Source of the DNA: Dehalococcoidia bacterium
Lineage (GTDB): Bacteria > Chloroflexota > Dehalococcoidia > Lucifugimonadales > UBA3495
Length of the DNA stretch: 64,000 bases
NCBI GenBank assembly: GCA_022825745.1
Contig: JAJDWF010000085.1
Coordinates: forward strand, 1,783 to 65,782
Direction of reading: 5' to 3'
This document shows, piece after piece, positions 15,942-49,397 of the stretch. A program made the position numbers and the translations under genes. The notes beneath the pieces are model-generated. The model worked only from the letters and a program-made list of their open reading frames with translations. It searched no databases and was not told the DNA's origin. Each line of letters opens with the position of its first letter. Position 1 is the first letter of the stretch.

Positions 15942-15944
15942 GGC

Positions 15945-18830
15945 TCAGGCGGCCCGAGATAAACCAAGCCATTGGGCGGCCTGCCGGCCGGCGCTGGACA
16001 CGTTGGACGCCTGGATGGTGCACGGCGGCAAAGCGTTGAGGAAACGGTCACCGTAGTTGGCGGTCTGGATTCGCCGGTCCAGAATCACCACGGCTCCCCG
16101 GTCCGTCTTGCTGCGAATCAGTCGGCCAAATCCCTGGCGAAAACGCAGCACGGCGTTGGGCACCTGGTAGTCATTGAACGGGTTGTTGTACAGGTTGCCT
16201 CTCGCCTTGACGATGGGATCGTTGGGCACCGGGAATGGCAAGCGACACAACAGCAGCCCGCGCAGTATCCCCGATTCCAGGTCAACGCCCTCCCAGAAGC
16301 TGGCAGTCCCCAGCAGCACGGCGCGCGGGTCGGACTGCATGCGGTCAATCAACTGGCGTGGTGTGCCGTCAATCCCCTGGGCCAGCACGCCAATGCCCTC
16401 GGCCCGCAGCCGGCCGCGCACCCGGTACGAGGCGTCCCGCAACGCGCTGTGTGAAGTGAACAGCGCAAGCAGATGGCCGTCCAGTTCGCGCGCCATGTTG
16501 AGGATGATCTCGGCGGCGCCGGCGGCGTGGTCGGCGGCCCGGCGCGGGTCCGGCAGGTCGTCGGGAACCATGAGCAGCGTATTGCGCCGGTAGTTGAACG
16601 GGCTGTCCACCAGCAACTCGTCGCAGTCCTCCGGGAACCCCACTCGTTCCCGCAGAAAGTCGAACCGGGAATCGGTAGCCAGCGTGGCGCTCGTCAGGAT
16701 GACCGACTCCTTGCTGGCGAAAAGTTTCTCGGCCAGGATCGGCCCCACGGCCAGCGGCGTGGAGTGAAGCGTCAGATTGCGGCGCACGAAGTCCAGCCAT
16801 TGGATTCGCTCTTCTTCGTAGCGTCCGAAAACCGAAGCCAGGTTCTCGTTGATTTCCGTCAGCGCGTCTATGGAGCTCACCAGTTCGCCGGCCGGAGTGT
16901 CGTCGGGCAGGTGGAACCATCCATCGGTCACGGCCCGCTGCAGGGCGGACAGGGCGTTGACGCATTCGCTCACAAAGGCCGCAAGCGACTCCCACTCGAT
17001 GGCGGCCACGCTCCACGGGCGGGTCTGCCGCACGCTGGCGTCCAGCGTTACCGGCTGGCGGTCGTTGTCGGCCCGGCCGCCGTCCGAGGAACGGGCCGCG
17101 CTCTGGTACAGCCCGTCCATGGACTCCCATAGGCGCTGCCAGGCCTGCCCCGCCTGGTTGCAGGCGGCGGTGGCGTTGGCCACCGATTCCCGCGCGCGCG
17201 GCGCTTCCAGCGTGTCGCCCAACCGTCCGGCGGCGGTGTTCAGGTGGCCGATGACCCGATAGACGCTTTCCAGTTCCTGCGTCAGCGTGCCGGCCGCGAT
17301 TTCAAAGCCCAACTGCCGGCTCGCCTCTTCCTCCAGGTGATGCGCCTCGTCAATGACCAGCCGCTGGTAGTCTCCCAGCACGGTGCCCCCCACCGATAGA
17401 TCGGCCAGCAGCAGCGCGTGGTTGATTATCAGCACGTGGGCGGCTGCTGCCTGGTCGCGGGCCTGGCGCAGGAAGCAGGGCGAACCCCCCCGCAGCGCCG
17501 GGCAGCCCTCGGCGGCGTCCGCGCAGATTCGCGACCACGCCGTCCAGTCCTGCATGTGGAGGTTCAGGTGCGTGCGGTCGCCGGATTCAGTCTCATCCAG
17601 CCACACCGCCGTCTTGCCGATGACCCGCGCCTCGTCTTCATTCAGCGAATCGGAGTTGCCCAGGTTGTTCCAGCGGTGCAGGCAAACGTAGTTGGACCGG
17701 CCCTTGAGCTGGGCGGCCCTGACCACCCCGGGCTCCAGGATGCCAGCCTCTTCCAGTATCCCGATCACGGCCGGGATGTCCTTGTCCATCAACTGCTCCT
17801 GGAGGTTGATGGTGTTGGTGGACACGACCACGCGCTGCCCATTGGCGGCAGCGTACAGCACGGCCGGCAGCAGGTACGCGATGCTCTTGCCGATGCCCGT
17901 GCCGCCCTCAACGATCAGTTTCCGGCCCTGGTAGATGGCGCGGGTAACCGCCTTTAGCATCTCGGCCTGCTCGGGCCGGTTCTCGAAGTTGGGAAAGGAC
18001 TTGGCGAAAATGCCGTCGGGAGCCAGCAACTCCTCCACCTGCTGCTCGGTAAGCTGGCGGCGCACGGCGTTGGCGGATGGACTCTCGGCCGGGCTAGCGG
18101 CCGGCTGCTCGGTCAGTTTTTCCAGCTTCAAACCGGACAAGCCAGTCCAGCCGGCCGGGTTTGCCGCAGCATCGCCGGCCCGCGCGGCGTTGGCGCCGGA
18201 GGCGTGGGGGATCAACCCTTCCAGCAGGTCGGCTACGGGGGCGTTGGCGGCCCGGGCGGCCCGGGCGATGAACGACACCTTGGCGGCGGAATGGCCGGCC
18301 CCGGCTTCCAGCAGGCGGTGGAATACCAGCGCGGTGATTTCGGCGTCGGCGCTGGCCCGGTGCGCCTGGCTGTGGTCCAGGCCGAGATAGGTCGCCAGTG
18401 CGGACAGGTTGTATTCGGGAATAGTCGGCAGGAATATGGACGCCAGGTCCCAGGTGTTGTAGTTCCGGTTGGGCAGCGGGAGATGGTGAGAGCGCAGAAA
18501 GCCCAGGTCAAAGGCCACGTTGTGGCCGATGATTGGCAGGTCGCCGATAAAGTCCGCGAACTGGTTGGCCACCCGGTTGAACGTGGGTGCCCGCTCAATC
18601 TGCGCCGGGCTGATCGAGGTCAGTTGCTGGATGAACGGCGGGATCTTGCGCCCCGGGTTGACGAACGTCTGGTATCGGTCGAGGATTTCGCCGCCTTTAA
18701 ATCGAACGGCCCCGAGTTCAATGATGGTGTCGGAGTTGGCGTTGAGCCCGGTGGTTTCCAGGTCAATGCTGACAAACTCGTGCTCGAAGGGGTCGAGCCG
18801 GGTCCCGCCTAAAACGGATGCTTGCGTCAT
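15945..18830 (-). CDS. dinG: DinG-family ATP-dependent helicase fused to an N-terminal DnaQ-like 3'-5' exonuclease
   Basis: Exo motifs (FVSIDLETTGL, HNVAFD, HRASADA), then Walker A (GTGIGKS), DEAH box (VIDEAHHLEE), and a C-terminal helicase domain. Confidence 0.9.
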   Translation of the reverse strand: MTQASVLGGTRLDPFEHEFVSIDLETTGLNANSDTIIELGAVRFKGGEILDRYQTFVNPGRKIPPFIQQLTSISPAQIERAPTFNRVANQFADFIGDLPIIGHNVAFDLGFLRSHHLPLPNRNYNTWDLASIFLPTIPEYNLSALATYLGLDHSQAHRASADAEITALVFHRLLEAGAGHSAAKVSFIARAARAANAPVADLLEGLIPHASGANAARAGDAAANPAGWTGLSGLKLEKLTEQPAASPAESPSANAVRRQLTEQQVEELLAPDGIFAKSFPNFENRPEQAEMLKAVTRAIYQGRKLIVEGGTGIGKSIAYLLPAVLYAAANGQRVVVSTNTINLQEQLMDKDIPAVIGILEEAGILEPGVVRAAQLKGRSNYVCLHRWNNLGNSDSLNEDEARVIGKTAVWLDETESGDRTHLNLHMQDWTAWSRICADAAEGCPALRGGSPCFLRQARDQAAAAHVLIINHALLLADLSVGGTVLGDYQRLVIDEAHHLEEEASRQLGFEIAAGTLTQELESVYRVIGHLNTAAGRLGDTLEAPRARESVANATAACNQAGQAWQRLWESMDGLYQSAARSSDGGRADNDRQPVTLDASVRQTRPWSVAAIEWESLAAFVSECVNALSALQRAVTDGWFHLPDDTPAGELVSSIDALTEINENLASVFGRYEEERIQWLDFVRRNLTLHSTPLAVGPILAEKLFASKESVILTSATLATDSRFDFLRERVGFPEDCDELLVDSPFNYRRNTLLMVPDDLPDPRRAADHAAGAAEIILNMARELDGHLLALFTSHSALRDASYRVRGRLRAEGIGVLAQGIDGTPRQLIDRMQSDPRAVLLGTASFWEGVDLESGILRGLLLCRLPFPVPNDPIVKARGNLYNNPFNDYQVPNAVLRFRQGFGRLIRSKTDRGAVVILDRRIQTANYGDRFLNALPPCTIQASNVSSAGRQAAQWLGLSRAA

Positions 18831-32192: not shown

Positions 32193-32269
32193 TGGTGCCG
32201 AGGGGCGGATTCGAACCACCGACACCGGCATTTTCAGTGCCGTGCTCTACCAGGCTGAGCTACCTCGGC
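32193..32269 (-). tRNA. tRNA-Phe (GAA anticodon), CCA encoded
   Basis: The reverse complement folds as a cloverleaf: GCCGAGG acceptor stem, anticodon loop CUGAAAA, T-arm GGTGG-TTCGAAT-CCGCC, 3' CCA. Confidence 0.9.
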
Positions 32270-32338: not shown

Positions 32339-35300
32339 CTACGGCGAGCCGCAGGTCGCCACCCCTCCCGGCTTGTCCGCCACGCCATCCAGCCAGGCCG
32401 TGAACCCCTCGTCGTCCGGCGCGCACAGCCCCGTATTGGCGATGGCCAGCCGTTCCAGGTCCGCCAGATTGGTGAACCCCGACGGCAACGCCCCGCTCAA
32501 CCCGGTGTTGTCGTGCAGCGACAGCCGAGTCAACCCGCTCAGGTTGCCCAGGCTCGCCGGCAGCGACCCGCTCAACTGGTTCCGCGCCAACCCGATGATG
32601 CTCAGGTTCGACAGGTTGCCCAGCTCCGTCGGTATCGACCCGGTGAGGCTGTTGCGATTGGCGGCGAAGCGGCGGAGGTTACTCAAATTGCCCAGCTCAG
32701 CAGGGATGGATCCGTTCAAATTGTTGCGGTCCAGCGCCAAATCCTGCAAGCTCGTCATGCTTCCCATGCTGGCCGGTATCGACCCGGTGAGGCCGCCATC
32801 GCCGTCCGCGTCAACCTGGCGATGCAGATAGAGCACTTCCAGTTTCTTCAGGTTGCCCAGGCTGGCCGGCAACGGGCCGGTCAGTTGGTTGTTCTGAAGC
32901 TCCAACCGCTCCAGATTGGTCAGGTTGCCCAACCCATCGGGTAGTGGGCCGGTGAACTCGTTTCCGCCCAGCGTAGCTATCCAAAGCTCGGTCAGGTTGC
33001 CCATGCTGGTCGGAAGCGGACCCTTCAGGTCGTTGTCGTATAGGTACAGTTGGCGCAGTTCGGTGAGGTTTCCGAATGACTCGGGTATGGTTCCGTTCAG
33101 GTTTCTTTGGTGGAGGGTCAGTCGTGTCACCCGTCCCAGGTGGTTGGTGGTAACTCCGGCCCACTCGTGCAGCGGCTTGTCGCTGCCCCAGTTATTGCTG
33201 GAGGTCCAGTTAGGGCCGTTGGTAGCGTTGTAGAACTCCATCAGCACCGGGCGGTCGCGGTCGTCCGGGCAGTCGTAGATTTGGACCTTGGTCAGGCCGT
33301 CCAGCCATTCCTGAATTGCCGCATCGTCGGGCGCACAAACCTGGGTATAAACGGTGTACAAGTGAGTCATGCTGGACATACCCGTCATGCTCAAAGGCAA
33401 AGGACCGCTCAAGCCGCGGTTCTCACGGATCATGAGCACCTGGAGTTCGGACAGGTCGCTGATTTCCGCAGGCAGGGAGCCTTGCAGGTTATTGTTCGGC
33501 AGCTCCAGGGCAATCACCCGCCCGTCGTCATCGGTAGTGACGCCGCCCCACTTGCCCAGCGGCTCCGCGCTCAGCCAGTTGTGGTTGTAAGTCCAGTTGG
33601 CTCCGCCGGTGGCATTGTAGAGGGCAGTCAGCGCGTCCCGATCCGGGTTGTACCCCGCCTCCAGCTTGGCCCGGTTGCTGCGTTGGGTCTCAACGCCGTC
33701 AAGCAGCGTTGCCACCTGGTATGTATAGGTCTGGCCTGTCGTCAAACCCTTGTCGGTATATGAGGTCGAACTGCCGTCGTAGCCGGTCATCTTCTCACCG
33801 TCGCGGTAAAGGGCGTAGGTGATCGGGGCTTCCGGCCGGTGCGGAATGGTCAGCGCGTTCCAGCTCAGTTCTATCTGAGTGCCGGAGGCTGTCGCCGTCA
33901 GGCGAGACTGGTAGCCGAACTCTTGCCAGGTGGCGGTGTTGTCGCCGTTGAAGTCTGCTCGCAGCGCGGGGTACTGCTGGTTAGTGCCAAAATCCCAGGG
34001 GTTGTCGGGGGTGGAGTCGCCGTCCAGGTCCACGTTCCAGGCGGAATAGATGCCGGTGTAGCCCCGGGGCGTCTGAAGCTCGCCGGTGGTCTTGGCGGTA
34101 GCGCCGTCGGTATGCCCGGAGGTGTCGCTGTCATGGTAGCTGTCGGTTATAGTCCCATCCACATTCACGCCCACCAATCCGCCGCCGCCACCTTGACCTC
34201 TCGTCGCGCCAGTGGCGTAACTGGTGCCTATAGTTCCTTCGTTGATGCCCACCAGACCACCGGTCGCGCCCTGGCCTGTAGCGTAGCTGGCGATGATGGT
34301 CCCTTGGTTCCGGCCCACCAATCCGCCGGACAACCCCGAGGCCGTAACCGTTCCGGTGGCGTAGCTGGCGCTTATTGTCGCGCCGTTGTTGCGGCCGACC
34401 AGGCCGCCACTGCTGGACTGGCCGTTGACCGCTCCGGTAGCATAACTTCCGATTATGGAACTGCCGGGTTCAGTGTAGCCGACCAGGCCGCCGGTATCTT
34501 CTTTGCCGCTGACCGCTCCGGTAGCGTAGCTGTCGAAAATCCTGCCGGAATGCTCATTTTCGCCGGTTAAGCCACCGGCATGCCTTTGGCCATTGACCGT
34601 AACTTCGGCATAACTGCCGCTTATTATGTGCCAGTTCTCACCGGTCAAACCACCGGTGTCGTAGGTGCCAGCAACCTTGCCGGTAACGTAACAGTTGCTG
34701 ATTGTGCCGTTGCTCCAACCCGCCAGGCCGCCTACGTATTTCCCGCCTTTTACATCCACTTGAGCCAGCCCCAGGTTCCTGATTTCACCACCAATCCCCA
34801 CCTCAGCAAAGAGCCCCTGATGGGGGAAGCTGAAGAAGAAACCCGGCCACACTTCGATTTCACTGCGGTCGATGAACAAGTTGGCGATGGTGCGACGGTT
34901 GCCTTCAAAGGTGCCGGTGAAAGAGTCGGCTTGAACACCAATCCGGTGCCAGCCCTGGCCCTCGTTCCAGTAGGTAGCGTCGGCAGCGGTAATCTCCCCG
35001 TCGCGGTTCTCGTCAAAGTCCAGGTTGGCCGTCAGCTCGTAGCCGGTGCAGGTAGTTCCGGCGGGGCAAACCGCGCCATCCTCTGCCACCGGAAACGCGA
35101 CGGCGTAGTCCGCCTCATTCCCGGCGGCCGGCGTCCCGTCGCCGTCCAGGTCCCAACGGACGGCGTTGAGCTTGGCCAGGCTGTCAATTTCAATCAGGCC
35201 GTCGCCGTCGGCGTCGTGGTTGTTGGGCGCGCTTTCGGGTGTTGCCGCCGCCCGGTTGCTGCGCCGGGCTTCAACGCTGTTGAGCAGCGTCGCCACGTGA

Positions 35301-37003
35301 TAGGTGTAGGTTTGTCCAACCGTCAGCCCCGTGTCGGTATAGGAGGTCGAACTGCCGTCGTAGCCAGCCACCTTCTCCCCGTTCCGGTAGAGGGCATAGG
35401 CAATGCTCGGCGGACTTGTCCAGTGAGATGCGTCCGCCGGGTTCCAGCGCAGAAACACGCGCGGGCCGGCGACCCGCGCCGTCACGATGGGCCGCTCCCG
35501 CACCTGGTAGCCCAACTCCTGCCAGGTGGCGGTGCCGTCGCCGTTGAAGTCGGCTTTCAGTACAGGGTACTGGTCTGCCGTCCCGAAGTGCCACGGATCG
35601 TCGCCGCCGGTGCTATCGTCGCCGTCCCCATCGGCGTTGTCCAGGTCCAGGTTCCATCCGGCATATATGCCGGTGTAGCCGGTGGGAGCGGTCAATTCGG
35701 CAGTGCTTTTGCCTCCCGCGCGGACACGGCCGAAGACGTCGCTGTCATAGTAATATCCGCTGATCGTTCTCCCACTGTTATTGCCCACAACGCCGCCGAC
35801 GTGACTGTTGCCGCTGACCGTGCCCACAGCGTAGCTGCCCGCGATCGTTCCTTCGATCGTATCTCCCAACGCAGTATAAAACTCGTTATCACCCACGAGA
35901 CCGCCGACATCGCTATTGCCGCTGACCGTGCTCATGGCGTAGCTGGACCTTATCGTTCCGTCGTTGGCGCCCACCAGGCCGCCCACATCTTCATCGCCGC
36001 TCACCGAGCCGGTAGCGTAGCTGCGGATTATCACGCCCTTGCGTTCACCGCCGAATTCTGACGCGTTGAAGCCTACCAGTCCGCCGACGTCATATTGGCC
36101 AACAACTTTGCCGGTGGAGTAGCTGTCGGTTATGGTGCCGGAAATTTCGTTCTCGCCCACCAGGCCGCCGACGTGAAGTCCTCCGGTGACATCAACCGCC
36201 GCCCAGCAACGGGTTGCCGAACCGAAAGTCTCACCAATCAGTCCGCCGGTATCATAAGTGCCAACAACTTTGCCGGTGGCCCAGGCGGCGGTAATGCTGG
36301 TTTCCACTTGGCTCCAACCGGCCAGTCCACCGGCGTACCTGTCTGCCGTAACGTCCACGCCCGGCAGCCCCAGGTTCCTCACCTCCGCGCCGTTGCCCAA
36401 CACGCTGAACAGCCCCTGGGTATTTTTGGTTGAGCGGTCAGCAAACAGGTTGGCGATGGTGTGGCCGTTGCCATCGAAGGTAACGTGAAATAGACGGGCG
36501 TCGCGTGGGGAAGTACTCCCATCGTTGAGGGCGGTGACGCCTTGCCTGCCGATAGGAAGCCAGCCGGCGCCGTTGTTCCAGTACGCGCTGTCGGCAGCGG
36601 TAATCTCCCCGTCGCGGTTCTCGTCAAAGTCCAGGTTGGCCGTCAGTTCGTAGCCGGCGCATTCGGTTTCGGCGGGGCATACCGAGCCATCCTCGGCTAC
36701 CGGGAACGCGGCGGAGTAGTCGGCGTCGTTGCTGGCGTTGTCTGCCGCGCCGTTGTCGTCCAGGTCCCAGCGGACGGCGTTGAGCTGGGCCAGGCTGTCG
36801 ATTTCGATCAGGCCGTCGCCATCAGTATCATAGTGGGCGGGCGGAGTTTGCGCTTCGGCGGGTGGCGCGGCGACGAACAGGCTCAGCAACACCAGCACCA
36901 GCACGGCGGCCAGGGGCAGCAGGGGCCATCTTATGATGCCGCTCCCTCCGAGTTGCAGGGTGCGAAAACGCGCTATGCGGCGTCCTTTGTTGCTATTCAA
37001 CAT
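32339..37003 (-). CDS. Giant secreted/surface protein: two GLUG-repeat modules with FN3-like domains plus two plant-type LRR modules
   Basis: ATG at 37003 (GAGGGAGGGG RBS), signal/anchor helix, DxDGDGxIE Ca-binding-like motifs, 7+8 GLUG repeats (V/TGGLVG), two FN3-like domains and about 14 24-residue LRRs. Confidence 0.85.
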   Translation of the reverse strand: MLNSNKGRRIARFRTLQLGGSGIIRWPLLPLAAVLVLVLLSLFVAAPPAEAQTPPAHYDTDGDGLIEIDSLAQLNAVRWDLDDNGAADNASNDADYSAAFPVAEDGSVCPAETECAGYELTANLDFDENRDGEITAADSAYWNNGAGWLPIGRQGVTALNDGSTSPRDARLFHVTFDGNGHTIANLFADRSTKNTQGLFSVLGNGAEVRNLGLPGVDVTADRYAGGLAGWSQVETSITAAWATGKVVGTYDTGGLIGETFGSATRCWAAVDVTGGLHVGGLVGENEISGTITDSYSTGKVVGQYDVGGLVGFNASEFGGERKGVIIRSYATGSVSGDEDVGGLVGANDGTIRSSYAMSTVSGNSDVGGLVGDNEFYTALGDTIEGTIAGSYAVGTVSGNSHVGGVVGNNSGRTISGYYYDSDVFGRVRAGGKSTAELTAPTGYTGIYAGWNLDLDNADGDGDDSTGGDDPWHFGTADQYPVLKADFNGDGTATWQELGYQVRERPIVTARVAGPRVFLRWNPADASHWTSPPSIAYALYRNGEKVAGYDGSSTSYTDTGLTVGQTYTYHVATLLNSVEARRSNRAAATPESAPNNHDADGDGLIEIDSLAKLNAVRWDLDGDGTPAAGNEADYAVAFPVAEDGAVCPAGTTCTGYELTANLDFDENRDGEITAADATYWNEGQGWHRIGVQADSFTGTFEGNRRTIANLFIDRSEIEVWPGFFFSFPHQGLFAEVGIGGEIRNLGLAQVDVKGGKYVGGLAGWSNGTISNCYVTGKVAGTYDTGGLTGENWHIISGSYAEVTVNGQRHAGGLTGENEHSGRIFDSYATGAVSGKEDTGGLVGYTEPGSSIIGSYATGAVNGQSSSGGLVGRNNGATISASYATGTVTASGLSGGLVGRNQGTIIASYATGQGATGGLVGINEGTIGTSYATGATRGQGGGGGLVGVNVDGTITDSYHDSDTSGHTDGATAKTTGELQTPRGYTGIYSAWNVDLDGDSTPDNPWDFGTNQQYPALRADFNGDNTATWQEFGYQSRLTATASGTQIELSWNALTIPHRPEAPITYALYRDGEKMTGYDGSSTSYTDKGLTTGQTYTYQVATLLDGVETQRSNRAKLEAGYNPDRDALTALYNATGGANWTYNHNWLSAEPLGKWGGVTTDDDGRVIALELPNNNLQGSLPAEISDLSELQVLMIRENRGLSGPLPLSMTGMSSMTHLYTVYTQVCAPDDAAIQEWLDGLTKVQIYDCPDDRDRPVLMEFYNATNGPNWTSSNNWGSDKPLHEWAGVTTNHLGRVTRLTLHQRNLNGTIPESFGNLTELRQLYLYDNDLKGPLPTSMGNLTELWIATLGGNEFTGPLPDGLGNLTNLERLELQNNQLTGPLPASLGNLKKLEVLYLHRQVDADGDGGLTGSIPASMGSMTSLQDLALDRNNLNGSIPAELGNLSNLRRFAANRNSLTGSIPTELGNLSNLSIIGLARNQLSGSLPASLGNLSGLTRLSLHDNTGLSGALPSGFTNLADLERLAIANTGLCAPDDEGFTAWLDGVADKPGGVATCGSP

Positions 37004-37245
37004 TGTCTGCCCCTCCCTCAGACACAATCCAGTCCACCCAACGGCGGATGTGCACGCCGAAAATGTCAAGTACGGTGACCGCCGCCAATTTTACCACCCA
37101 AAACCCCCAAATCCAGCATATATCGACATTAATTCCCAAAAACCCCGGTGCCCTTCCGGTGTCCGAACAGGGCGGGAGCCAAGCAAAGAAAAAGGGCGGT
37201 CAGGAAAACCCTGAACGCCCCGGCGCTACCTGGTCGGCGAAGTCG

Positions 37246-41622: not shown

Positions 41623-42810
41623 ATGAGCAGCCCGGTTGAGGAGAGGTTACTGGGCCGTCTGGCCGGTCTGCTGGAATGGCAGGGTCTGGGTACCGCCGCC
41701 TTGACGCCAAGACCCCGCGGTGGCCGTTTGCACGGAGCGGACGCGGAGGAGGTTGCATCGCTGCTTGAAGAACTGGCCGCTGCGGATGCCGGGTTGCCCG
41801 CCGGCCGTCGGCCCCGCAGCCTGATCTTCGGCAACGGGTGTTTCGCCATCGGGAGATACGCCGAGGCGCTCACGGTGTACCAGGCATTGGTCGGCGAGCG
41901 GCCCAACGATTTTGCGGTGCACTTCAACCTGGGCGTTACCTTTTTGCGACGACGCCAGCCGGAAGAAGCGGTTCGCGCCCTGACCAGGGCCCTGGAACTG
42001 GATGCCTTTTCCGCGCCGGCCTACTACCAGCGCGGCAATGCGCGGGACGATATGGGAGACGGCGCCGGGGCGCTGGAAGATTATGCGACCGCCATCGGGT
42101 TGAATCCGGATTATCTTCAGGCGCACTATAATCGCGGGATCGTGTTGAACAAGATGGGGAGATACCCCGAGGCCATTGAAGCGTTTAACGATGTAATGGC
42201 GCTGCGGCCCGACATAGCCAACGCCTATTTGAACCGGGGCGTGGCGCGAGATGAGGTGGGAGACGTGGACGCTGCCGTCGCCGATTACGACGCGGCGCTG
42301 CGCTGTGACCCGGACAACGCCGACGCGCGTTTCAACCGGGCGCGGATACGTTATCGGGTGGGCCGATACCGGGAGGCAGTGGAGGACTATACGGCGGCGA
42401 TTGGGCTGCGTCCGGATGACGTGGAGGCAATAAACAACCGGGGCCTGGCCTACGATGCGCTGGGACGGTATGAGGACGCTATTGCCGATTACGACGCGGC
42501 GTTGAAGTTGCAACCGGATTTCGCGGAAGTGCTGAGCAACCGGGGCGCGGCGTTGGAGAGCCTGGGCGACGTTAACGCGGCGTTGGTAAATTACCTGGAG
42601 GCGCAGAAAGCGCTGCCGCATTTTGCCGCCGCCTATTACAACGCCGCCCGCCTGTATGCCGACCGTGGCGACATCGCCGGGTGCGCGGAGCAGTTGGCGG
42701 AGGCGGTCCGGCTGCAGCCGGGGCTGTATGCGGAAGCCGAGTCCGACGAGACGCTGGGGTGGGTGCTGGATCTGTCGCGGATGAGAGACGAACGGCAGGG
42801 GGTTGAGTAA
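41623..42810 (+). CDS. Tetratricopeptide (TPR) repeat protein
   Basis: About 9 consecutive 34-aa TPR units (A..YN.RG.......G....A..DY..A..L.PD). Confidence 0.85.
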   Translation: MSSPVEERLLGRLAGLLEWQGLGTAALTPRPRGGRLHGADAEEVASLLEELAAADAGLPAGRRPRSLIFGNGCFAIGRYAEALTVYQALVGERPNDFAVHFNLGVTFLRRRQPEEAVRALTRALELDAFSAPAYYQRGNARDDMGDGAGALEDYATAIGLNPDYLQAHYNRGIVLNKMGRYPEAIEAFNDVMALRPDIANAYLNRGVARDEVGDVDAAVADYDAALRCDPDNADARFNRARIRYRVGRYREAVEDYTAAIGLRPDDVEAINNRGLAYDALGRYEDAIADYDAALKLQPDFAEVLSNRGAALESLGDVNAALVNYLEAQKALPHFAAAYYNAARLYADRGDIAGCAEQLAEAVRLQPGLYAEAESDETLGWVLDLSRMRDERQGVE

Positions 42811-42843
42811 TCGTCAGTCGCCGCAGCGCGATTGACGGTTGAT

Positions 42844-43572
42844 CTAATTTTCGTCGTCCTGGGGGATGACCTGGCGGAGGATGGCTTCTTCGCTGAGCCC
42901 GGCGGCCTCGCTGTGCACTTCCGGTGTGTCGGCGATGAGCAGGTCGGGATCTATGGCCGCCGGAACCTTTTCCGGTTTGTGGTCGGCATGGGTGAGGATG
43001 TTGTGGGTGATGACGACCAGGGCCAGAGCGGTGAGGCCGAGCATCACATCCAGGCCGCGGTGGTGTATGACTTGGTTCAGGGCAAGCATCACTCCGTAGC
43101 CGAAGAAGATGCCGATGGAGGAGCGGAACACGGAACGGCGGAACAGCAGGACGAAGATGATGCCAACGATTATGCCGATCAGTACGAACCAGTTCAGGTA
43201 GCCCAGCGACACGCCCACCAGCACCACCATACCGTCTCCGCCCTTGAATCCGGTGAAGATGCTCTTCCAGTGGCCGGCGATGGCGGCGGCGCCGGCCACC
43301 AGGCCGAGCAGCTCGTGCTGTCCGAACATGGAGGCGACGTACACGGCGGCCGCGCCCTTCAGGACGTCGCAAGCGAATACCATCATGCCGCGACGGCGTC
43401 CGACGTGCCAGAAGACGTTGGCAGTGCCGGCTCGCCGGCTGCCGGTGGCGAAAATGTCCACGCCCTTCCAGCGGGCCACAAGGTAGGCAAACGGGATACT
43501 GCCAAGCAGGTAGCCGACCAACGCCGCCGCCAGGATGCGGGTTATCAGGGGGGCGAAGTCGGCAAAAGGCAT
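42844..43572 (-). CDS. plsY: PlsY-family glycerol-3-phosphate acyltransferase homologue with divergent motif 1 and a C-terminal extension
   Basis: YLLGSIPFAYLVARWKGVDI..TGSRRAGTANV resembles the PlsY N-terminus. ATG at 43572 is preferred over TTG at 43587. Confidence 0.75.
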   Translation of the reverse strand: MPFADFAPLITRILAAALVGYLLGSIPFAYLVARWKGVDIFATGSRRAGTANVFWHVGRRRGMMVFACDVLKGAAAVYVASMFGQHELLGLVAGAAAIAGHWKSIFTGFKGGDGMVVLVGVSLGYLNWFVLIGIIVGIIFVLLFRRSVFRSSIGIFFGYGVMLALNQVIHHRGLDVMLGLTALALVVITHNILTHADHKPEKVPAAIDPDLLIADTPEVHSEAAGLSEEAILRQVIPQDDEN

Positions 43573-43642
43573 ATGGTCAAGTCGCAATTAGGACGAATTT
43601 AGAAATTGGTAAAGGATGATACCACAGCGCTTCGTACCGGGT

Positions 43643-44470
43643 TTATTCAGGCTTGTGAGCGACGTACAGCCAGTAGCCGACTTCACCACGCCGGACCAGC
43701 TGTTCTACGCGCTCCAGCAGCCCTGGACCGAACTCAACCAGGTCGCCAGCGACGGGCGGCGCAGAATGCGCAAGGCTGCCCCAGATCGTCATTTTGCCGC
43801 GCAGTTCGGATAACAGTTCCAGTACCTCGCCCGACAAGTCGGCCCGATCGGTTACGGTGAAACCACCGGCTGCCAGGAGGTCCGGGTAACCGTCGGCGGG
43901 CAAAGCGTCGGTGAGGCAAAGCATCATGCCCACGGTTCCGTCCAACTCGGGCGGCAGGCTGCCAGGTTCAACGGTTACGTCGGAAAGGCCGATGACTCCG
44001 CCGGGCCGCAGCAGCCGGTAAACCTCGGCGATTGCGGCGGACTTGTCGGCGAACAGGCTGGTGGCGCATTCGATGATGACGGCGTCGAACGCGCCGGTGC
44101 GGAACGGCGGCATTTCCGCGTCACCGCGAACAAAACCCACGTTAGCCGGTATGGGTTCGCTGAGAGCGCGCTGACGGGAAGCTACGGCGGCCTCTGGGCC
44201 AAGTTCCAGGCCGGTTACGTGGCAGCGGAACACGCGGGATATTGCAGTGGCGCCGGTCCCCAGGCCGCAGGCCAGATCCAGAACGCGCCAGCCGGGTTGT
44301 ATTCCCATGGCGCGGCCCAGACGGTTGGTGGCGCGGAGGCCGCCGGGGTGCAGGCTGTCGCCAAGGATGAGCCGCGCAAACTCCGAGGAGTACAGGTCGG
44401 CGCAGCAGATTTTGGCGGAGTAGGTGGAGAGCATCCGGCAGCTACTCTCACACCTGCCCATTCCCATCAA
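43643..44470 (-). CDS. Class I SAM-dependent methyltransferase with an N-terminal vicinal-Cys (CC) motif
   Basis: ICCADLY...LGDSLHPGG...VLDLACGLGTGA. The start is uncertain (TTG at 44470, ATG at 44467, 44461 or 44434). The longest form overlaps the radical SAM stop by 23 nt. Confidence 0.75.
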   Translation of the reverse strand: MMGMGRCESSCRMLSTYSAKICCADLYSSEFARLILGDSLHPGGLRATNRLGRAMGIQPGWRVLDLACGLGTGATAISRVFRCHVTGLELGPEAAVASRQRALSEPIPANVGFVRGDAEMPPFRTGAFDAVIIECATSLFADKSAAIAEVYRLLRPGGVIGLSDVTVEPGSLPPELDGTVGMMLCLTDALPADGYPDLLAAGGFTVTDRADLSGEVLELLSELRGKMTIWGSLAHSAPPVAGDLVEFGPGLLERVEQLVRRGEVGYWLYVAHKPE

Positions 44471-45908
44471 GGGAGAGAGCTTTAATTCTATGGCGGCCCT
44501 GCTGCTGGATAAGTTGTTCGCGCACCTGCTCGCGGTAGCCGACGGAGTTGTAGGCGCAGAAGGGTATGGCGCGGCCGTCGGGCGTCAGGATGCCGACGCA
44601 GCACTTCATCACCTGCTTGACGTTAAACGTCCAGGCGTCCAGGAAGTCCTTGATGGCGATCTGGAAAATGTGGTCCTTGAGATGGTTGATCTCATAGGGC
44701 AGGTCCAATCCGGGTCCGCAGGCGCACTCGAACTGGCTGGCAGTGGTTTCCGTGCCGGCCACGGCGGACGCGGACCACAGGCCTTCCAGCGCGGTCTGAA
44801 TGTCCACGGCGTTGGGCGGCTTCGGCAATGCGCGGTTCGTGATGTAGTCCAGGTACTGGTCAATGTCCAGGAGGCGAGGTAAGGGCGTTACGTTGTCGCC
44901 GTCCACGAAAAGGTAGGAATTGACCTGGCAGGTGGGGAAACAGCATGGGACGGGTACGAAGTCCTCCAGGACGAAACGGCCGTCGGTCTGATCGACGATG
45001 CCGTGGATGATGTCCGGGATGGTGACCCGGGTCATCGGGTCAAACTCGATGTGCCGGCCGACGTGGGTGACGGGCTGGAACACGACGCCACGGACGGCGG
45101 GGTGCTTGAGTCCAAACTCGACGATGGGTCCGACCTCGTCGGTGTTCACGTCGCGCTCGATTGCGGCGACGAGGACGGCGGTCATGCCGGCATCCGCGAG
45201 GCGGTCAAGGGCGCGCATCTTGGTTTCCAGCAACGGTTCGCCGCGTATGGTGCGATAGGTTTCCTCGCGCAGTGCGTCGAACTGGAAATAAACGACGGGA
45301 TTGAGGGCAGCCATCCGGGACAAGAATTTGTCATCGTGGGCGAGTCGCACGCCGTTGGTGTTGATCATCACCTGGCGAATGCCCCGGTCTTTGGCGGCCT
45401 GAATCATCTCGGGCAGTTGCGGGTGGATGGTGGGTTCCCCGCCGCTGAACTGGACCACCTCGGGGTCACCCTCGATTTCGATGAATCGATCAAGCATGGA
45501 CTCAACCTGTTCCAGGGTGAGGCTGTAGCCGATGCCAGCGTCGGCGAAACAGACAGGACAGTCCAGGTTGCAGCCGGTGTTAACCTCGATGAGGGCCAGG
45601 CAGATGTGCTGCTTGTGCTCAGGGCAGAGCCCGCAGTCCAGGGGGCAGCCGTTCTCAACCTCTGTGCTGAAATCCAGGGGGATGGTGCCGGGCTTGTTGA
45701 AACGCACGCTGCCGACGTACATCTCGGCGTCAGAACTGATGATGCCTTCAAACCAGCCATGCTCGGGACAGCGCTTCCGCATATAGACCTTGTTGTCGCG
45801 GATGATTACCTGCGCGTCGATGACCGCCTTGCATTCCGGGCAAATGGAGCGGGTGAGCTCGTGAAATATGAAATCGGCGTCCTGCTTGGTATGGCTAGTT
45901 GTGGCCAA
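44448..45908 (-). CDS. Radical SAM enzyme, MJ0619 / Tes (GDGT-MAS)-like architecture
   Basis: N-terminal CxxC...CxxH (C23, C26, C47, H50), then CPLDCGLC (C88/92/95) and CNLDCPVC (C113/117/120), both CX3CX2C. C-terminal Cys clusters are present. TTG start with AAGGAG RBS inside the upstream gene. Confidence 0.8.
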   Translation of the reverse strand: MATTSHTKQDADFIFHELTRSICPECKAVIDAQVIIRDNKVYMRKRCPEHGWFEGIISSDAEMYVGSVRFNKPGTIPLDFSTEVENGCPLDCGLCPEHKQHICLALIEVNTGCNLDCPVCFADAGIGYSLTLEQVESMLDRFIEIEGDPEVVQFSGGEPTIHPQLPEMIQAAKDRGIRQVMINTNGVRLAHDDKFLSRMAALNPVVYFQFDALREETYRTIRGEPLLETKMRALDRLADAGMTAVLVAAIERDVNTDEVGPIVEFGLKHPAVRGVVFQPVTHVGRHIEFDPMTRVTIPDIIHGIVDQTDGRFVLEDFVPVPCCFPTCQVNSYLFVDGDNVTPLPRLLDIDQYLDYITNRALPKPPNAVDIQTALEGLWSASAVAGTETTASQFECACGPGLDLPYEINHLKDHIFQIAIKDFLDAWTFNVKQVMKCCVGILTPDGRAIPFCAYNSVGYREQVREQLIQQQGRHRIKALSLDGNGQV

Positions 45909-46728
45909 CTGAGGATACTCCTTGAATTGTTGTTAGTAGTCTTTCGCGCATAATGCCCACCGCCTCCGGGTTGTTGTCAATCAGCGTAAACTCCCGCCCC
46001 TCCCGCTCGGCAGCCTCGCCCAACGTCCCGCTGCCGGCGAAGAAATCCAGCACGCGGTCGCCGGGGTTGGAATGTACTCGGACGATGCGGCTGATGATGT
46101 GCAGGGGTTTCTGGGTGGCGTAGCCGGTTTTCTCCTTGCCGGTTACGATGGTGCGCCACCAGACGTCCGTAGGGGTTTTGCCGCGAGCGGCTTTTTCGGG
46201 GCCGACCAATCCGGGAGCCAGGTAGGGGATGCGGTCGATGGCGTCGTAGTTGAAGGTGTAGTTGTTCGGATCTTTCGCGTACCACAGGATGTTGTCGTGC
46301 TTGGCCGGCCAACGGGTTTTGGGGCGCCCGCCGTAATCGTAGGCCCAGATGATTTCGTTGATGAAGGAATCCCGGCCAAAGATTTGGTCCAGCATCACCT
46401 TACAATAATGCACTTCACGGTAATCGATGTGGAAGAACAGGCTGCCATGGTCGTCCAGCACTCGGTATGCTTCCGCCATGCGGGGCCACAGGAAGCCGAT
46501 GTATTCGTCGAAGTTGTCGGCGTAGCGGCTGTTGCCGACTATCTCCGTGAGATAGCGGCGTCCCTGAAAGCCCGTGCGGTCGCCGTTGGCGTCGGGCGTG
46601 ACCCTGATCCGCGTGCGGGACTGGGGCTTGCCGGTATTGAACGGCGGGTCAACGTAGATCAGCTGAAACGCGCCATCGGGCAGCGTGGGCAGGACATCGA
46701 GATTGTCGCCAAGTATAATTTCGCCCAT
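45895..46728 (-). CDS. Beta-class N6-adenine/N4-cytosine DNA methyltransferase (orphan)
   Basis: Motif IV DPPF near the N-terminus (LIYVDPPFNTG) and motif I FFAGSGT near the C-terminus. No endonuclease gene is adjacent. Confidence 0.85.
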   Translation of the reverse strand: MGEIILGDNLDVLPTLPDGAFQLIYVDPPFNTGKPQSRTRIRVTPDANGDRTGFQGRRYLTEIVGNSRYADNFDEYIGFLWPRMAEAYRVLDDHGSLFFHIDYREVHYCKVMLDQIFGRDSFINEIIWAYDYGGRPKTRWPAKHDNILWYAKDPNNYTFNYDAIDRIPYLAPGLVGPEKAARGKTPTDVWWRTIVTGKEKTGYATQKPLHIISRIVRVHSNPGDRVLDFFAGSGTLGEAAEREGREFTLIDNNPEAVGIMRERLLTTIQGVSSVGHN

Positions 46729-48046: not shown

Positions 48047-48880
48047 CTACATCGTTCGCCAGGTGTAGCCCTCGGTCATGGCCAGGAACTGGTCCATCAG
48101 GGCAGGGTTGGCGATAATCAGTCCCGGCGAGAATAAGGTTGCGTTATTCAGCGTGGCCCGGTCAAGGACGCGGGCGCCGGCTTCCTGGGCCAACAACACG
48201 CCGGACGCGATATCCCAGGAGGAAAGGCTGTGGTGAGCGTACAGGTCGATGCGCCCCGCGGCGGTGTACGCGATGCTCAAGGCGCTGGAACCCATCAACC
48301 GGTACCCTGAGATTTGCGGCCAGATTCCGTCGACCATTTCCATCAGGTGCTTGGCTTGTCCGAAATCGTAGCCGAGGTCAAACCCCAGGATGGCATCGTC
48401 GATGTTCTGCCGGTCGGATGCCCTCATGGCTTGACCGTTCAGGTAAGCGCCGGCTCCCTGCTGGGCTGAGAACATTTCATCCCGTACCGGGTCATAGGTA
48501 ACACCGGCCACGACATTCTCCCCGTCAGCGATGGCCACGACGATGCAGAAGTGAGGGATACCCTCGGCGAAGTTGCGGGTCCCGTCGATGGGGTCAACAA
48601 CCCAGGTGTAGGGAGAAGCCCCGGCGACGGGGGCCGACTCTTCGGACAGGACGCCGAAATCCGGGTATTCGCCGGTTACATAGTCCAGAATCAACCGCTC
48701 GGACGCCAGGTCGGCGTCGGTGACCACGTTGGCCCTCCCCTTGAGGCTAACTTCGACGTCAGTGCGGAATCGGCCCAGAACCAACTCGCCGGCCCGGCGC
48801 GCGGCGGTTTCACAGACCTCAAGGGCGGTTTGTCCGGAGCGGGATCGGGGCAGTCCGACGGGAGCAAGGGATTCCGACAT
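48047..48880 (-). CDS. Inositol monophosphatase family protein (SuhB/IMPase-like)
   Basis: Motifs WVVDPIDGT and a WD.A.G-like region (SWDIASG). ATG at 48880 with GAGGAGG 7 nt upstream. The 102 extra N-terminal codons in the track are rejected. Confidence 0.85.
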   Translation of the reverse strand: MSESLAPVGLPRSRSGQTALEVCETAARRAGELVLGRFRTDVEVSLKGRANVVTDADLASERLILDYVTGEYPDFGVLSEESAPVAGASPYTWVVDPIDGTRNFAEGIPHFCIVVAIADGENVVAGVTYDPVRDEMFSAQQGAGAYLNGQAMRASDRQNIDDAILGFDLGYDFGQAKHLMEMVDGIWPQISGYRLMGSSALSIAYTAAGRIDLYAHHSLSSWDIASGVLLAQEAGARVLDRATLNNATLFSPGLIIANPALMDQFLAMTEGYTWRTM

Positions 48881-48959
48881 GCGGGGGCCTCCTCTACTGG
48901 CAAGCCGCCGCAGTCTAGCATCCGCAGTAGGCTCGGACAACCGATGATATACTGATGAG

Positions 48960-49397
48960 GTGAGTACGCAGTCGAACAGGCCGTTGGTCGGTGTGGGGGT
49001 GGTGTTCGTGCGCCATGGTGAAGTGTTTCTGGCCAGGCGACGGGGAGCCCACGGTGAGGATAGTTGGGCCTCCGCAGGCGGACACCTGGAGTTCGGGGAA
49101 ACGTTGGAGGAGTGTGCCCGGCGTGAGGCGATGGAAGAGCTCAGCGTAAGGGTTGGCGAGCTGCGCGTCCTTTGCCTCAGCAACATCGTTGCCTACGGAC
49201 GCCATTACGTCGATGTGGAATTTCTTGGCGATATAGGGGATCAAGAACCAATTCCGACGGCATCCGACGGGTCGTTCGGAGAGTACGGGTGGTATCCGCT
49301 GTCCGGGCCACCGCAGCCGTTGTTCGAACCCATGCGCCTGGCCATCGAGAGCCTGCGGACGGGCCAATGGTATTATCCTTCTATATCAGAACAATAG
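48960..49397 (+). CDS. NUDIX hydrolase
   Basis: Nudix box GGHLEFGETLEECARREAMEE. Confidence 0.8.
   Translation: MSTQSNRPLVGVGVVFVRHGEVFLARRRGAHGEDSWASAGGHLEFGETLEECARREAMEELSVRVGELRVLCLSNIVAYGRHYVDVEFLGDIGDQEPIPTASDGSFGEYGWYPLSGPPQPLFEPMRLAIESLRTGQWYYPSISEQ

Follow-up and report, generated by a model that had tools for sequence, protein, structure and literature searches.

The 64-kb stretch of DNA analysed here (the window) carries on its minus strand a gene for a radical SAM enzyme of the Tes/GDGT-MAS fold family (44448..45908; 486 aa plus stop), which by its sequence is a member of an unnamed, methyltransferase-coupled subfamily. Since members of this bacterial branch are almost always paired with a methyltransferase, the enzyme probably makes something other than tetraether lipids. 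We lean towards the view that it forms, with a translationally coupled, Cys-rich methyltransferase, a two-gene unit acting on a lipid. Our best guess for the chemistry is that a lipid tail is functionalised by a radical and then methylated, the end product probably being a lipid that is modified and methylated, rather than a tetraether.

The open reading frame runs from a TTG at 45908 to a TGA at 44450-44448, and a strong Shine-Dalgarno sequence read from the DNA (AAGGAG, 45918..45923, minus strand) lies 9 nt 5' of the TTG. A sequence-only reading had proposed this frame, with no strand given, and it proved to be real. On the same strand follow a class-I SAM methyltransferase gene (43643..44470; Pfam Methyltransf_11/25/31), whose product is Cys-rich (C22, C23, C135 and C185), carries an HPGG motif and probably starts at an ATG between 44434 and 44467, and a PlsY-family glycerol-3-phosphate acyltransferase-like gene (42844..43587; PF02660, E = 2.5e-30), the last of the same-strand run. 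No terminator-like site was found between these three genes, the sole one at the end of the run being a hairpin with a T-run (42808..42841, strand not assigned) in the convergent gap past the PlsY-like gene. Upstream lies an N6/N4 DNA methyltransferase gene (45895..46728, minus strand; PF01555, E = 1e-44) whose stop overlaps the radical SAM start by 14 nt. We rejected it as a part of the system, as it is found upstream only in the window, in locus L001 and in the closest relatives (L010-L012, L016 and L017), and is absent elsewhere. The genomes closest to the source are Dehalococcoidia MAGs (87-91% identity) and the genome neighbours of the radical SAM gene include gyrB and plsY, which bears out the bacterial context that had been ascribed to the enzyme; the pair of the window sits in a housekeeping region. 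That Tes homologues occur in bacteria is already known.

The protein had been likened, from the letters, to the archaeal enzyme GDGT-MAS (MJ0619), and both profile searches and a structural model agree with this. The motifs exceed chance by a wide margin. Pfam places PF23545 (HMPTM/GDGT-MAS N-terminal zinc ribbon, E = 1.3e-19) at residues 15-58 and PF04055 (Radical_SAM, E = 2.4e-22) at residues 108-250. The top match among solved structures was 7tol_A (E = 8.7e-85, residues 17-466), the second best reaching E = 1e-7 over the core only. The AlphaFold2 model (pLDDT 93.1, pTM 0.92) superposes over its whole length on the MJ0619 structures 7tom and 7tol, with TM scores of 0.82 and 0.80, respectively (E = 1.6e-46, 489-503 aligned columns). 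SkfB, SuiB, anSME and CteB (SPASM/twitch), as well as MoaA and viperin, match the model through the barrel only (TM 0.33-0.39; about 0.37 for all radical SAM structures other than 7tom and 7tol), no SPASM Pfam match was obtained at E <= 1, and SPASM-family NCBIfam models cover the core only, at 30-54 bits vs cut-offs of 250-650. A SPASM/twitch maturase was rejected on these results and, since SPASM-type structures match the barrel alone, the protein does not fall into another radical SAM subclass such as SPASM, the outcome against which the sequence-only reading had set its proposal.

The Pfam name (HMPTM) and the InterPro name 'Methyltransferase_Class_D' come from a legacy annotation, '7,8-dihydro-6-hydroxymethylpterin dimethyltransferase', which some databases continue to use for the family and JGI gives to a close homologue (P0066), and under which the enzyme would be a radical SAM methylase of class D with a pterin as substrate. 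We know of no methanopterin made by Dehalococcoidia, Streptomyces or the other carriers. Further, the pterin activity was not reproducible in the hands of the authors of the GDGT-MAS structure, and the long hydrophobic tunnel of GDGT-MAS is incompatible with a pterin substrate (PMC9433317). On these published structural grounds we rejected pterin methylation, which is effectively refuted for the family and exceedingly improbable here.

More than 7,000 homologues were retrieved at E <= 1e-20, and conservation was counted in 96 representatives taken from 50%-identity clusters. In the N-terminal rubredoxin-like/zinc-ribbon domain (residues 15-58; 45735..45866, minus strand), the knuckle pair noticed earlier, C23-X2-C26 and C47-X2-H50, lies where it had been placed and is the mononuclear-site motif: the spacing C23-X2-C26-X20-C47-X2-H50 is identical to that of the mononuclear Fe site of GDGT-MAS, C9-X2-C12-X20-C33-X2-H36 (PMC9433317), and the four residues are kept in 93, 94, 96 and 92 representatives, respectively, with Cys replacing His in the remaining four. 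The two CX3CX2C motifs, CPLDCGLC (C88, C92, C95) and CNLDCPVC (C113, C117, C120), are likewise at the positions claimed. It had been argued that only one of them is needed for SAM, and alignment to the ligands of GDGT-MAS tells them apart. The first, together with H98 (45615..45647, minus strand; kept in 90-92 of the 96), aligns with C73/C77/C80/His83 and is therefore the motif of the auxiliary N-terminal [4Fe-4S] cluster; the second (45549..45572, minus strand; inside PF04055 and invariant in 96/96) aligns with C98/C102/C105 and is that of the radical SAM [4Fe-4S] cluster. Residues F121, R222, Q278 and R285 match the SAM-binding F106, R210, Q268 and R275 of GDGT-MAS. The further Cys groups listed in the sequence-only reading, PVPCCFPTC (C322, C323, C327), FECACGPG (C395, C397) and KCCVG...FCAYN (C436, C437, C451), fall in the C-terminal domain delimited by family alignments (residues 322-451; 44556..44945, minus strand). 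Among them C327, C436 and C451 are kept in 83-85 of the 96 representatives and align with C338/C455/C470 of MJ0619, and their conservation points to them as the ligands of the C-terminal [4Fe-4S] cluster. With cluster ligands invariant or nearly so, the protein is, by its sequence, a bacterial member of the Tes/GDGT-MAS fold family with all four predicted metal sites. Of these, the mononuclear site and the N-terminal [4Fe-4S] cluster have Cys3His ligands, and the other two are the [4Fe-4S] clusters of SAM cleavage and of the C-terminal domain.

This resemblance is not orthology, as judged by tests of Tes membership. The protein scored 340.6 bits against the NCBIfam Tes model (NF045702, cut-off 450) and 365.3 bits against the TrsS model (NF045646, cut-off 490), which was its best NCBIfam model, and its nearest 50%-identity clusters were likewise under both cut-offs. 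Representatives with the Met439/Tyr459 signature all pass the Tes model (481-638 bits), and two proteins, P0223 (569.9 bits) and P0165 (502.4), pass the TrsS cut-off. Met439, a labile cluster ligand, and Tyr459 are completely conserved in 1,000 archaeal Tes homologues. The window enzyme has K420 and I440 at these positions, and the methyltransferase-coupled clade has Q/K/R and E/I/F/Q, respectively. In addition, four extra Cys predicted to lie near the C-terminal cluster, C322, C323, C397 (C39x; also C395) and C437, are invariant in the clade, and extra C-terminal Cys vary among proteins passing the Tes cut-off. From the sub-cut-off scores, the missing Met439 and Tyr459 and the four extra Cys we infer that the enzyme is not a Tes orthologue, and we take it for a separate variant, made up of two enzymes, within a known family.

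The second enzyme is a near-constant companion. Among 53 loci, each from a species genome with a radical SAM homologue at >= 50% identity, 50 carry the Cys-rich class-I methyltransferase gene directly 3' of the radical SAM gene, and in 26 of these 50 the two genes overlap by 4 nt. The paired loci span Chloroflexota, Actinomycetota (including Streptomyces), Acidobacteriota, Dormibacterota and Armatimonadota, with flanks otherwise unrelated, and the pair is present also on metagenome contigs L006 and L008. In P0202 a homologous methyltransferase is fused to a radical SAM enzyme. A further apparent fusion of 716 aa (P0125) was rejected as a frameshift chimera, its methyltransferase motif LLGESYHPGG lying in a low-complexity tail. 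The best NCBIfam match of the methyltransferase was the DVU_1556 family (121.9 bits vs a cut-off of 155), followed by ArsM (NF008823, 68.5 bits; cut-off 263), and its best solved relative was MitM, a small-molecule N-methyltransferase (E = 4e-21; 1.6e-10 for ArsM). C22, C23, C135 and C185 are 95-100% conserved, and C135 and C185 98-100%. The latter two lie in the catalytic domain with some 50 residues between them, and their equivalents align with the cysteines of SNC and WGEC in ArsM (8xt7), so that the protein carries an ArsM-type Cys pair; in ArsM-type enzymes two such Cys bind As(III), as established from studies of ArsM and AS3MT.

This pairing bears on the most obvious alternative, that the enzyme is a true bacterial synthase of tetraether or membrane-spanning lipids, joining two iso-branched acyl or alkyl chains through their terminal carbons, in the way that Tes joins phytanyl chains, to give iso-diabolic acid or brGDGT-type lipids that the methyltransferase merely decorates. 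The GDGT-MAS fold and all cluster ligands are present and, since the M439A, Y459F and Y459L variants of GDGT-MAS are active in vitro, Met439 and Tyr459 are dispensable there and their absence here does not exclude tetraether chemistry. GDGT-MAS can also accommodate ester-linked bacterial phospholipids. Moreover, a role in making brGDGTs has been proposed for acidobacterial homologues, with Chloroflexota listed as candidate producers, and acidobacterial loci (L032-L038) sit in the methyltransferase-coupled clade. We nevertheless hold this alternative to be unlikely: the protein fails the Tes cut-off and lacks residues that every archaeal Tes examined retains, and Tes chemistry has no use for the near-obligate methyltransferase or for the four extra invariant Cys. 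The clade is also common in aerobic Streptomyces, Kitasatospora, Mycobacterium and Ktedonobacteria, from which, to our knowledge, no membrane-spanning lipids have been reported. Finally, in bacteria the job is done by a different enzyme, Mss, and Tes homologues were found in only 3 of 14 Acidobacteria that produce iso-diabolic acid, and in no producer of diabolic acid outside that phylum (PMC13159169).

For the reading that we favour, in which a lipid is functionalised and then methylated, the following steps can be proposed. The SAM cluster would generate a 5'-deoxyadenosyl radical, as shown for the family, and this would remove a hydrogen from an unactivated carbon. The substrate would be hydrophobic and is most likely a membrane-lipid acyl chain attacked at its end, as the shared fold and the lipid-related neighbours and fusions suggest. 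The substrate radical may then be held at the C-terminal cluster, as in GDGT-MAS, amid the four extra conserved thiols, and the partner methyltransferase, through its ArsM-type thiolate pair, might methylate either the functionalised product or a captured heteroatom. GDGT-MAS itself has been shown to bind ordinary phospholipids of bacteria, and its reaction passes through a lipid-sulfur intermediate (PMC9433317). Against the proposed function, the literature holds no substrate or product for any bacterial Tes homologue.

The gene context speaks for a lipid in part. The PlsY-like protein scored 87.9 bits against TIGR00023, below its cut-off of 137.2, as do both PlsY paralogues in relatives, and its gene adjoins the pair only in Dehalococcoidia relatives of >= 77% identity. 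Because gyrB and other flanking genes are syntenic in the same genomes, this linkage may reflect shared ancestry, and we downgraded it as strong evidence for a lipid function. PgsA-like CDP-alcohol phosphatidyltransferases were seen at three loci, and Lgt and acyl-adenylate-forming domains both as fusions and as neighbours of family radical SAM enzymes. Against the lipid reading, such neighbours are few and lineage-restricted, and the Lgt fusion and the AMP-binding fusions belong to other branches of the family.

Genes of thiol redox chemistry also recur near the pair. A flavoprotein disulfide reductase is found in 19 of 51 loci, sometimes directly upstream; it resembles MerA or Lpd and is under every cut-off. 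Thioredoxin-like and DsbD-like genes recur as well. Short homologues, screened for truncation at a selenocysteine site, were fragments or frameshifts. The redox neighbours are among the arguments for another alternative, in which the pair would put a heteroatom-methyl group on carbon. In a methylthiolation, the substrate radical would keep sulfur from the C-terminal cluster or from a Cys persulfide and the methyltransferase would S-methylate it; in a metalloid version, the radical would attack thiolate-bound As, Se or Te and the ArsM-like partner would methylate the metalloid, as ArsS/ArsM and ArsL/ArsM do for C-As bonds, for which a radical SAM enzyme with ArsM is an established route. GDGT-MAS indeed makes a C-S bond to its C-terminal cluster, with release of a sulfur-containing lipid under limiting SAM, and it is next to this cluster that the clade adds its four invariant Cys. 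The partner joins an invariant CC to the ArsM Cys pair, and TrsS, the sister family, consists of (seleno)proteins. Several results weigh on the other side, and we regard this alternative as quite improbable. No ars or mer genes were recurrent in a Pfam census of 136 flanking ORFs, on which ground a metalloid-resistance context was rejected; the pair of the window lies among housekeeping genes, with no copy of the flavoprotein reductase in the 64 kb; and the methyltransferase falls under ArsM cut-offs, MitM scoring better. We know of no methylthio-lipids or bacterial arsenolipids from the carrier taxa.

We likewise hold it improbable that the pair is a previously unrecognised two-enzyme system which places a methylated heteroatom (S-methyl, or else As-, Se- or Te-methyl) on a lipid tail, at an unactivated carbon. 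Here the Tes-type radical parked on cluster sulfur would be diverted to product instead of a C-C bond. Were the heteroatom arsenic, this would supply a way to make terminal dimethylarsinoyl lipids, for which we know of no settled biosynthetic pathway; and were the reading true at all, many 'Tes homologues' of Chloroflexota, Actinomycetota and Acidobacteriota that have been counted as candidate brGDGT producers would perform different chemistry.

The assignment matters for the interpretation of surveys. Which organisms and enzymes make brGDGTs is a long-standing question behind widely used palaeoclimate proxies, and metagenomic surveys take every Tes homologue in bacteria as a sign of the potential to make brGDGTs, Chloroflexota contributing the largest share of these in at least one survey. 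On sequence grounds, the Chloroflexota-type homologue belongs to a separate clade that falls short of the Tes model, bears a Cys signature of its own and is tied to a Cys-rich methyltransferase. Together with the spread of this clade through aerobic soil actinomycetes, from which we know of no reported membrane-spanning lipids, this calls for caution in such surveys. As a testable two-gene unit, the pair could reveal a reaction new to the Tes fold, and culturable carriers exist (Dictyobacter alpinus, Kitasatospora hibisci, Streptomyces vastus and Haloechinothrix aidingensis).

Compared with known systems, the closest characterised relative is GDGT-MAS/Tes (MJ0619; 7TOL, 7TOM; NF045702), which shares the four-domain fold, the three C-terminal cluster Cys and the SAM/5'-dA contacts R222 and Q278 (window numbering) at about 32-36% identity. 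The window enzyme differs from it by Lys for Met439, Ile for Tyr459 and the four extra invariant Cys, and its clade has a near-obligate methyltransferase, whereas none was found adjoining Tes-like homologues of the sampled Planctomycetota/Paenibacillus branch. Unlike archaeal Tes, an enzyme in a bacterial host with a PlsY-family gene is not expected to meet an archaeol substrate.

TrsS (NF045646; DVU_1553 to DVU_1556 gene set) shares the architecture and, in its locus, is likewise accompanied by a DVU_1556-family-like methyltransferase; a methyltransferase-radical SAM fusion is known in its branch. True members, however, score 502-570 bits, keep Met at the 439 position and are without the C323/C437 pattern. 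Taking a single TrsS locus (L090) as the definition of its gene context, a DVU_1553-family CoA ligase and a C_GCAxxG_C_C protein belong to it and neither adjoins the window enzyme, and the methyltransferase there has about 200 aa, as opposed to 275 aa with an N-terminal CC motif in the window. A literature search covering few subscription-journal papers found no published function for TrsS.

ArsS/ArsM and ArsL/ArsM likewise pair a radical SAM gene with a class-I methyltransferase bearing the ArsM-type Cys pair, but their radical SAM enzymes come from a wholly different fold family, and in the window the partner is under ArsM cut-offs and has no arsenic-resistance genes nearby. Mss (Thermotoga, Thermoanaerobacter), a radical SAM enzyme for which coupling of lipid tails via an auxiliary cluster has been proposed and a Tes-like catalytic architecture reported, belongs by its published description to a different, remotely related family, which sets it apart from the window enzyme.

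In literature searches with subscription journals mostly outside their coverage, queries on DVU_1556, on SAR202 with tetraether synthase and on arsenolipid with radical SAM returned nothing on the subfamily, and a split between methyltransferase-coupled and methyltransferase-less homologues was not described. The window enzyme is otherwise one of the uncharacterised bacterial Tes homologues, of which 456 were reported in 2022 and which a 2025 report found in 111 Chloroflexota MAGs (Zeng et al. 2022; Lloyd et al. 2022, with an IPR034474 network; 2025 Black Sea survey), Chloroflexota, Acidobacteriota, Actinobacteria and Planctomycetota being already counted there. Those reports pool the bacterial homologues as candidate brGDGT enzymes, whereas here a methyltransferase-coupled clade with its own Cys signature is set apart from the methyltransferase-less Planctomycetota/Paenibacillus branch.

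The radical SAM enzyme (rSAM) is encoded on the minus strand at 44448-45908 as a protein of 486 aa, whose TTG start codon at 45908 is preceded by AAGGAG at a spacing of 9 nt and whose TGA stop codon lies at 44450-44448. Pfam places an HMPTM N-terminal zinc ribbon (PF23545) at residues 15-58 and a Radical_SAM domain (PF04055) at residues 108-250. A sequence-only reading had listed the residues C23/C26/C47/H50, C88/C92/C95 and C113/C117/C120, plus C322/C323/C327, C395/C397 and C436/C437/C451 towards the C-terminus, and all are found at these positions. It had also likened the protein to GDGT-MAS (Tes), the archaeal tetraether lipid synthase, and on this sequence comparison, AlphaFold superposition and ligand alignment all agree. 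The sole strong relative of solved structure is M. jannaschii GDGT-MAS (MJ0619, PDB 7tol; E = 8.7e-85 over residues 17-466), all other solved structures having E at or above 1e-7 and covering the core only. An AlphaFold2 model built from a 77-sequence alignment (mean pLDDT 93.1, pTM 0.92) superposes end to end on 7tom and 7tol (TM 0.82 and 0.80, respectively; E about 1e-46). SkfB, MoaA, viperin, SuiB and anSME match the model in the barrel only (TM 0.33-0.39); as this holds for SkfB, SuiB and anSME, a SPASM-type enzyme, the competing assignment named in that reading, is ruled out. rSAM thus has the GDGT-MAS fold, and both the initial observation and its structural interpretation are correct.

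The MJ0619 sequence was rebuilt from the 7tol alignment, and each residue that the structure paper cites was used to verify its numbering. The Fe-site motif published for GDGT-MAS, C9-X2-C12-X20-C33-X2-H36 (PMC9433317), has its aligned counterpart in C23-X2-C26-X20-C47-X2-H50 of rSAM, while C73/C77/C80 and the His ligating the N-terminal cluster correspond to C88/C92/C95/H98, the SAM cluster to C113/C117/C120, and C338/C455/C470 to C327/C436/C451. This mapping indicates that the first CX3CX2C motif, with His98, is the auxiliary cluster and that the second binds SAM, bearing out the earlier proposal that two consecutive motifs of this type imply at least one auxiliary cluster. rSAM has four metal sites, and the ligands of three are near-invariant in an alignment of 96 full-length representatives.

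rSAM is neither a Tes orthologue nor a TrsS protein and belongs to a separate subfamily. It scores 340.6 against the NCBIfam model of Tes (NF045702; cut-off 450, true members 481-638) and 365.3 against that of the radical SAM (seleno)protein family TrsS (NF045646; cut-off 490, true members P0165 and P0223 at 502-570). Searching 1.84 billion cluster representatives exhaustively gave 751 relatives at E <= 1e-30, and the nearest clusters, P0121 to P0134, likewise fall below both cut-offs. One 716-aa 'representative' (P0125) was set aside as a frameshift or assembly chimera, in which the N-terminal half of rSAM runs into low-complexity sequence carrying the methyltransferase motif LLGESYHPGG. Met439, which serves GDGT-MAS as the labile fourth ligand to its C-terminal cluster, and Tyr459 are completely conserved across 1,000 archaeal homologues (PMC9433317), and the pair is present in 6/6 Tes-scoring representatives tested; in the alignment of 96 representatives, rSAM has Lys420 and Ile440 at these positions. 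Since the GDGT-MAS mutants M439A, Y459F and Y459L stay active (PMC9433317), the absence of this pair counts against orthology, not against related chemistry. The rSAM clade has extra invariant cysteines (C322, C323, C437 and one residue of the loop 395-397, namely C397 in alignment A1) at positions that vary in Tes-proper sequences. By position, they flank the putative cluster ligands C327 and C436.

The gene directly 3' of rSAM, on the same strand (43643-44470), encodes a class-I SAM methyltransferase, and no terminator was found between the two. A survey of GTDB representatives, with a single genome for each species, supplied the best 80 loci. These include Dehalococcoidia, SAR202, Ktedonobacteria (including the cultured Dictyobacter alpinus), Chloroflexia, Thermomicrobiales and Tepidiforma; Actinomycetota are numerous (Streptomyces, Kitasatospora, Mycobacterium sp. 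SM1, Haloechinothrix, Kribbella, Asanoa, Spirillospora), and Acidobacteriota, Dormibacterota and Armatimonadota also occur, followed at about 40% identity by Planctomycetota, Paenibacillus, others and a few archaeal MAGs. Where rSAM identity is at least 50%, the methyltransferase lies directly downstream on the same strand in 50 of the 53 evaluable loci (26 of the 50 with a 4-nt overlap); below 50% it does so in 4/25, all four being archaeal MAGs. Apart from the pair, these loci have unrelated surroundings, so the pairing reflects a functional link, not inherited synteny. The same pair is found in two metagenome contigs (rSAM identity 52% and 44%), and P0202, from the TrsS-like branch, has a homologous methyltransferase (E = 1e-19 across its full length) fused to an rSAM. 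In the single TrsS locus retrieved, a DVU_1553-family CoA ligase accompanies a DVU_1556-like methyltransferase. The rSAM clade is therefore methyltransferase-coupled, and presence of the methyltransferase tracks its Cys signature (C322/C323/395-397/C437).

In the archaeal contigs L061 (Thaumarchaeota MAG), L066 (Heimdallarchaeota MAG), L077 and L078 (Thorarchaeota MAG), a Cys-rich methyltransferase directly follows an rSAM with 38-45% identity to that of the window; here the pair may have been acquired horizontally, may be of ancient origin or may result from contamination during binning. A branch at ~40% identity from Planctomycetota, Paenibacillus, Chitinophagaceae and related loci (e.g. L079-L082, L084-L088) has no methyltransferase partner and carries Ser/Thr at the position of C436 and Asp/Glu at that of C451. 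It may be devoid of the C-terminal cluster altogether and would represent another functional type.

Across 57 sequences, the methyltransferase residues C22, C23, Y27, H41-P-G-G44, E134, C135, K143, D164, C185 and Y266 are 95-100% conserved. Among NCBIfam models the enzyme scores highest with the DVU_1556 family (122-142 bits vs a cut-off of 155), ahead of the ArsM models, and among solved structures with MitM (E = 4e-21; ArsM, 1.6e-10). C135 and C185 equivalents align with the cysteines of the SNC and WGEC motifs of ArsM 8xt7, which bind As(III) according to established work on ArsM and AS3MT. The enzyme is thus no ArsM by score or context, yet keeps an ArsM-type thiolate pair plus an invariant CC.

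Around the pair in about 41 diverse loci, a Pfam census of 136 flanking ORFs recovered pyridine-nucleotide disulfide oxidoreductases (10-11 ORFs), MFS transporters (8), further methyltransferases (about 5), CDP-alcohol phosphatidyltransferases (3) and Thioredoxin_4 (2), and no recurrent ars or mer family. By clustering, a disulfide oxidoreductase adjoins the pair in 19/51 loci; in several phyla, with Kitasatospora, Chthonomonadaceae and Bryobacterales as examples, it immediately precedes the pair in the same direction. This recurrent flavoprotein is MerA/Lpd-like but below every cut-off, and could act as the dedicated reductant of the rubredoxin-like domain or take part in thiol chemistry. It shows a GGDCLYTGCVPSK redox motif and has no C-terminal Cys pair (L042, 5200-6954; L028, 5547-6983; L038, 5592-6988; L022, 11115-12551; and 15 other loci); the 64-kb window holds none of its copies.

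Lipid-related hints are scattered across loci: the PlsY-family neighbour in the window, whose adjacency to the pair is confined to close relatives; PgsA-like genes in Ktedonobacteria and Chloroflexia; one Lgt-rSAM fusion (P0145) and one Lgt neighbour; and, in the TrsS branch, acyl-adenylate-forming domains as fusion parts or neighbours. Within a stretch of about 6 kb, Dehalococcoidia relatives (L002, L005, L023) have two divergent PlsY-family genes, of which one adjoins the pair; in L002 these lie at 10600-11283 (+) and 15890-16675 (-), with 95 and 80 bits vs the NCBIfam PlsY cut-off of 137. The window has only the pair-adjacent copy.

Upstream of rSAM, an N6/N4 DNA methyltransferase gene (PF01555; 45895-46728, minus strand) ends with a TAG stop and runs 14 nt into the region of the rSAM start codon. 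Only the closest relatives of the window have this gene upstream; elsewhere the pair occurs without it. A restriction enzyme was not seen in its vicinity, and the gene may therefore be an orphan methylase that inserted beside the operon. The ORF at 48047-49186 (minus strand; inositol-monophosphatase family) has 379 aa vs 258-275 aa in L002, L003 and L005 and a Pfam match from residue 122 onwards, so that its mechanically called start is probably too far upstream. A 1,576-aa ORF (32339-37069, minus strand) adjoins tRNA-Phe (32193-32269, minus strand), the only tRNA gene of the window.

The Tes fold, the lipid-gene hints and the binding of ordinary E. coli phospholipids by GDGT-MAS (PMC9433317) point to a hydrophobic chain, probably a membrane-lipid tail, as the substrate of rSAM. 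The radical would be handled at the thiol-rich C-terminal cluster and the methyltransferase would act on the product; we favour this general picture by a small measure. In GDGT-MAS, a C-S intermediate forms, and a sulfur-bearing lipid is released under limiting SAM (PMC9433317). A narrower version, in which the pair installs a heteroatom-methyl group, either by methylthiolation or to give a metalloid-lipid, would agree with the precedents of ArsS/ArsL, with the thiol-redox neighbours and with the Cys pair of ArsM type, but the flanking ORFs provide no ars context, and we regard it as a long shot. Plain Tes-like tail-to-tail coupling, yielding brGDGT or iso-diabolic acid, is improbable: rSAM scores below the Tes cut-off and lacks the Met/Tyr pair, the obligate methyltransferase and extra cysteines would be left unexplained, and the clade is present in aerobic actinomycetes. 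Moreover, most bacteria with membrane-spanning lipids have no Tes homologue, Mss, the bacterial membrane-spanning lipid synthase, making these lipids there (PMC13159169).

The bacterial setting pointed out in the sequence-only reading was confirmed, the nearest genomes being Dehalococcoidia MAGs (87-91% identity; a SAR202 MAG protein is 80% identical to rSAM) and the neighbours including gyrB besides the PlsY-family gene, but it was already known. The Tes discovery paper reported 456 bacterial homologues in IMG genomes, proposed as brGDGT enzymes (PMC8941075); they are also present in the similarity network of the GDGT-MAS paper (PMC9433317), and a Black Sea survey found a homologue in 111 Chloroflexota MAGs (PMC11868695). 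No bacterial Tes homologue has been characterised, and in an August 2026 review they still figure only as 'detected bioinformatically'. rSAM is a member of this already noticed pool, and the homologue itself would not surprise a lipid-biochemistry specialist. The Tes/TrsS fold family evidently holds many uncharacterised functional variants, with fusions to a DVU_1556-like methyltransferase (P0202), a MobA-like nucleotidyltransferase, alone or together with an HD domain (P0209, P0211), AMP-binding domains (P0227, P0270) and DUF5714 (P0191, P0194). What is new is that the bacterial Tes homologue pool is heterogeneous, the Chloroflexota-type enzyme falling in a clade that is coupled to a methyltransferase and has a Cys signature of its own. 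This clade calls for caution in brGDGT gene surveys, and its obligate methyltransferase partner is a concrete lead toward a new reaction of the Tes fold.
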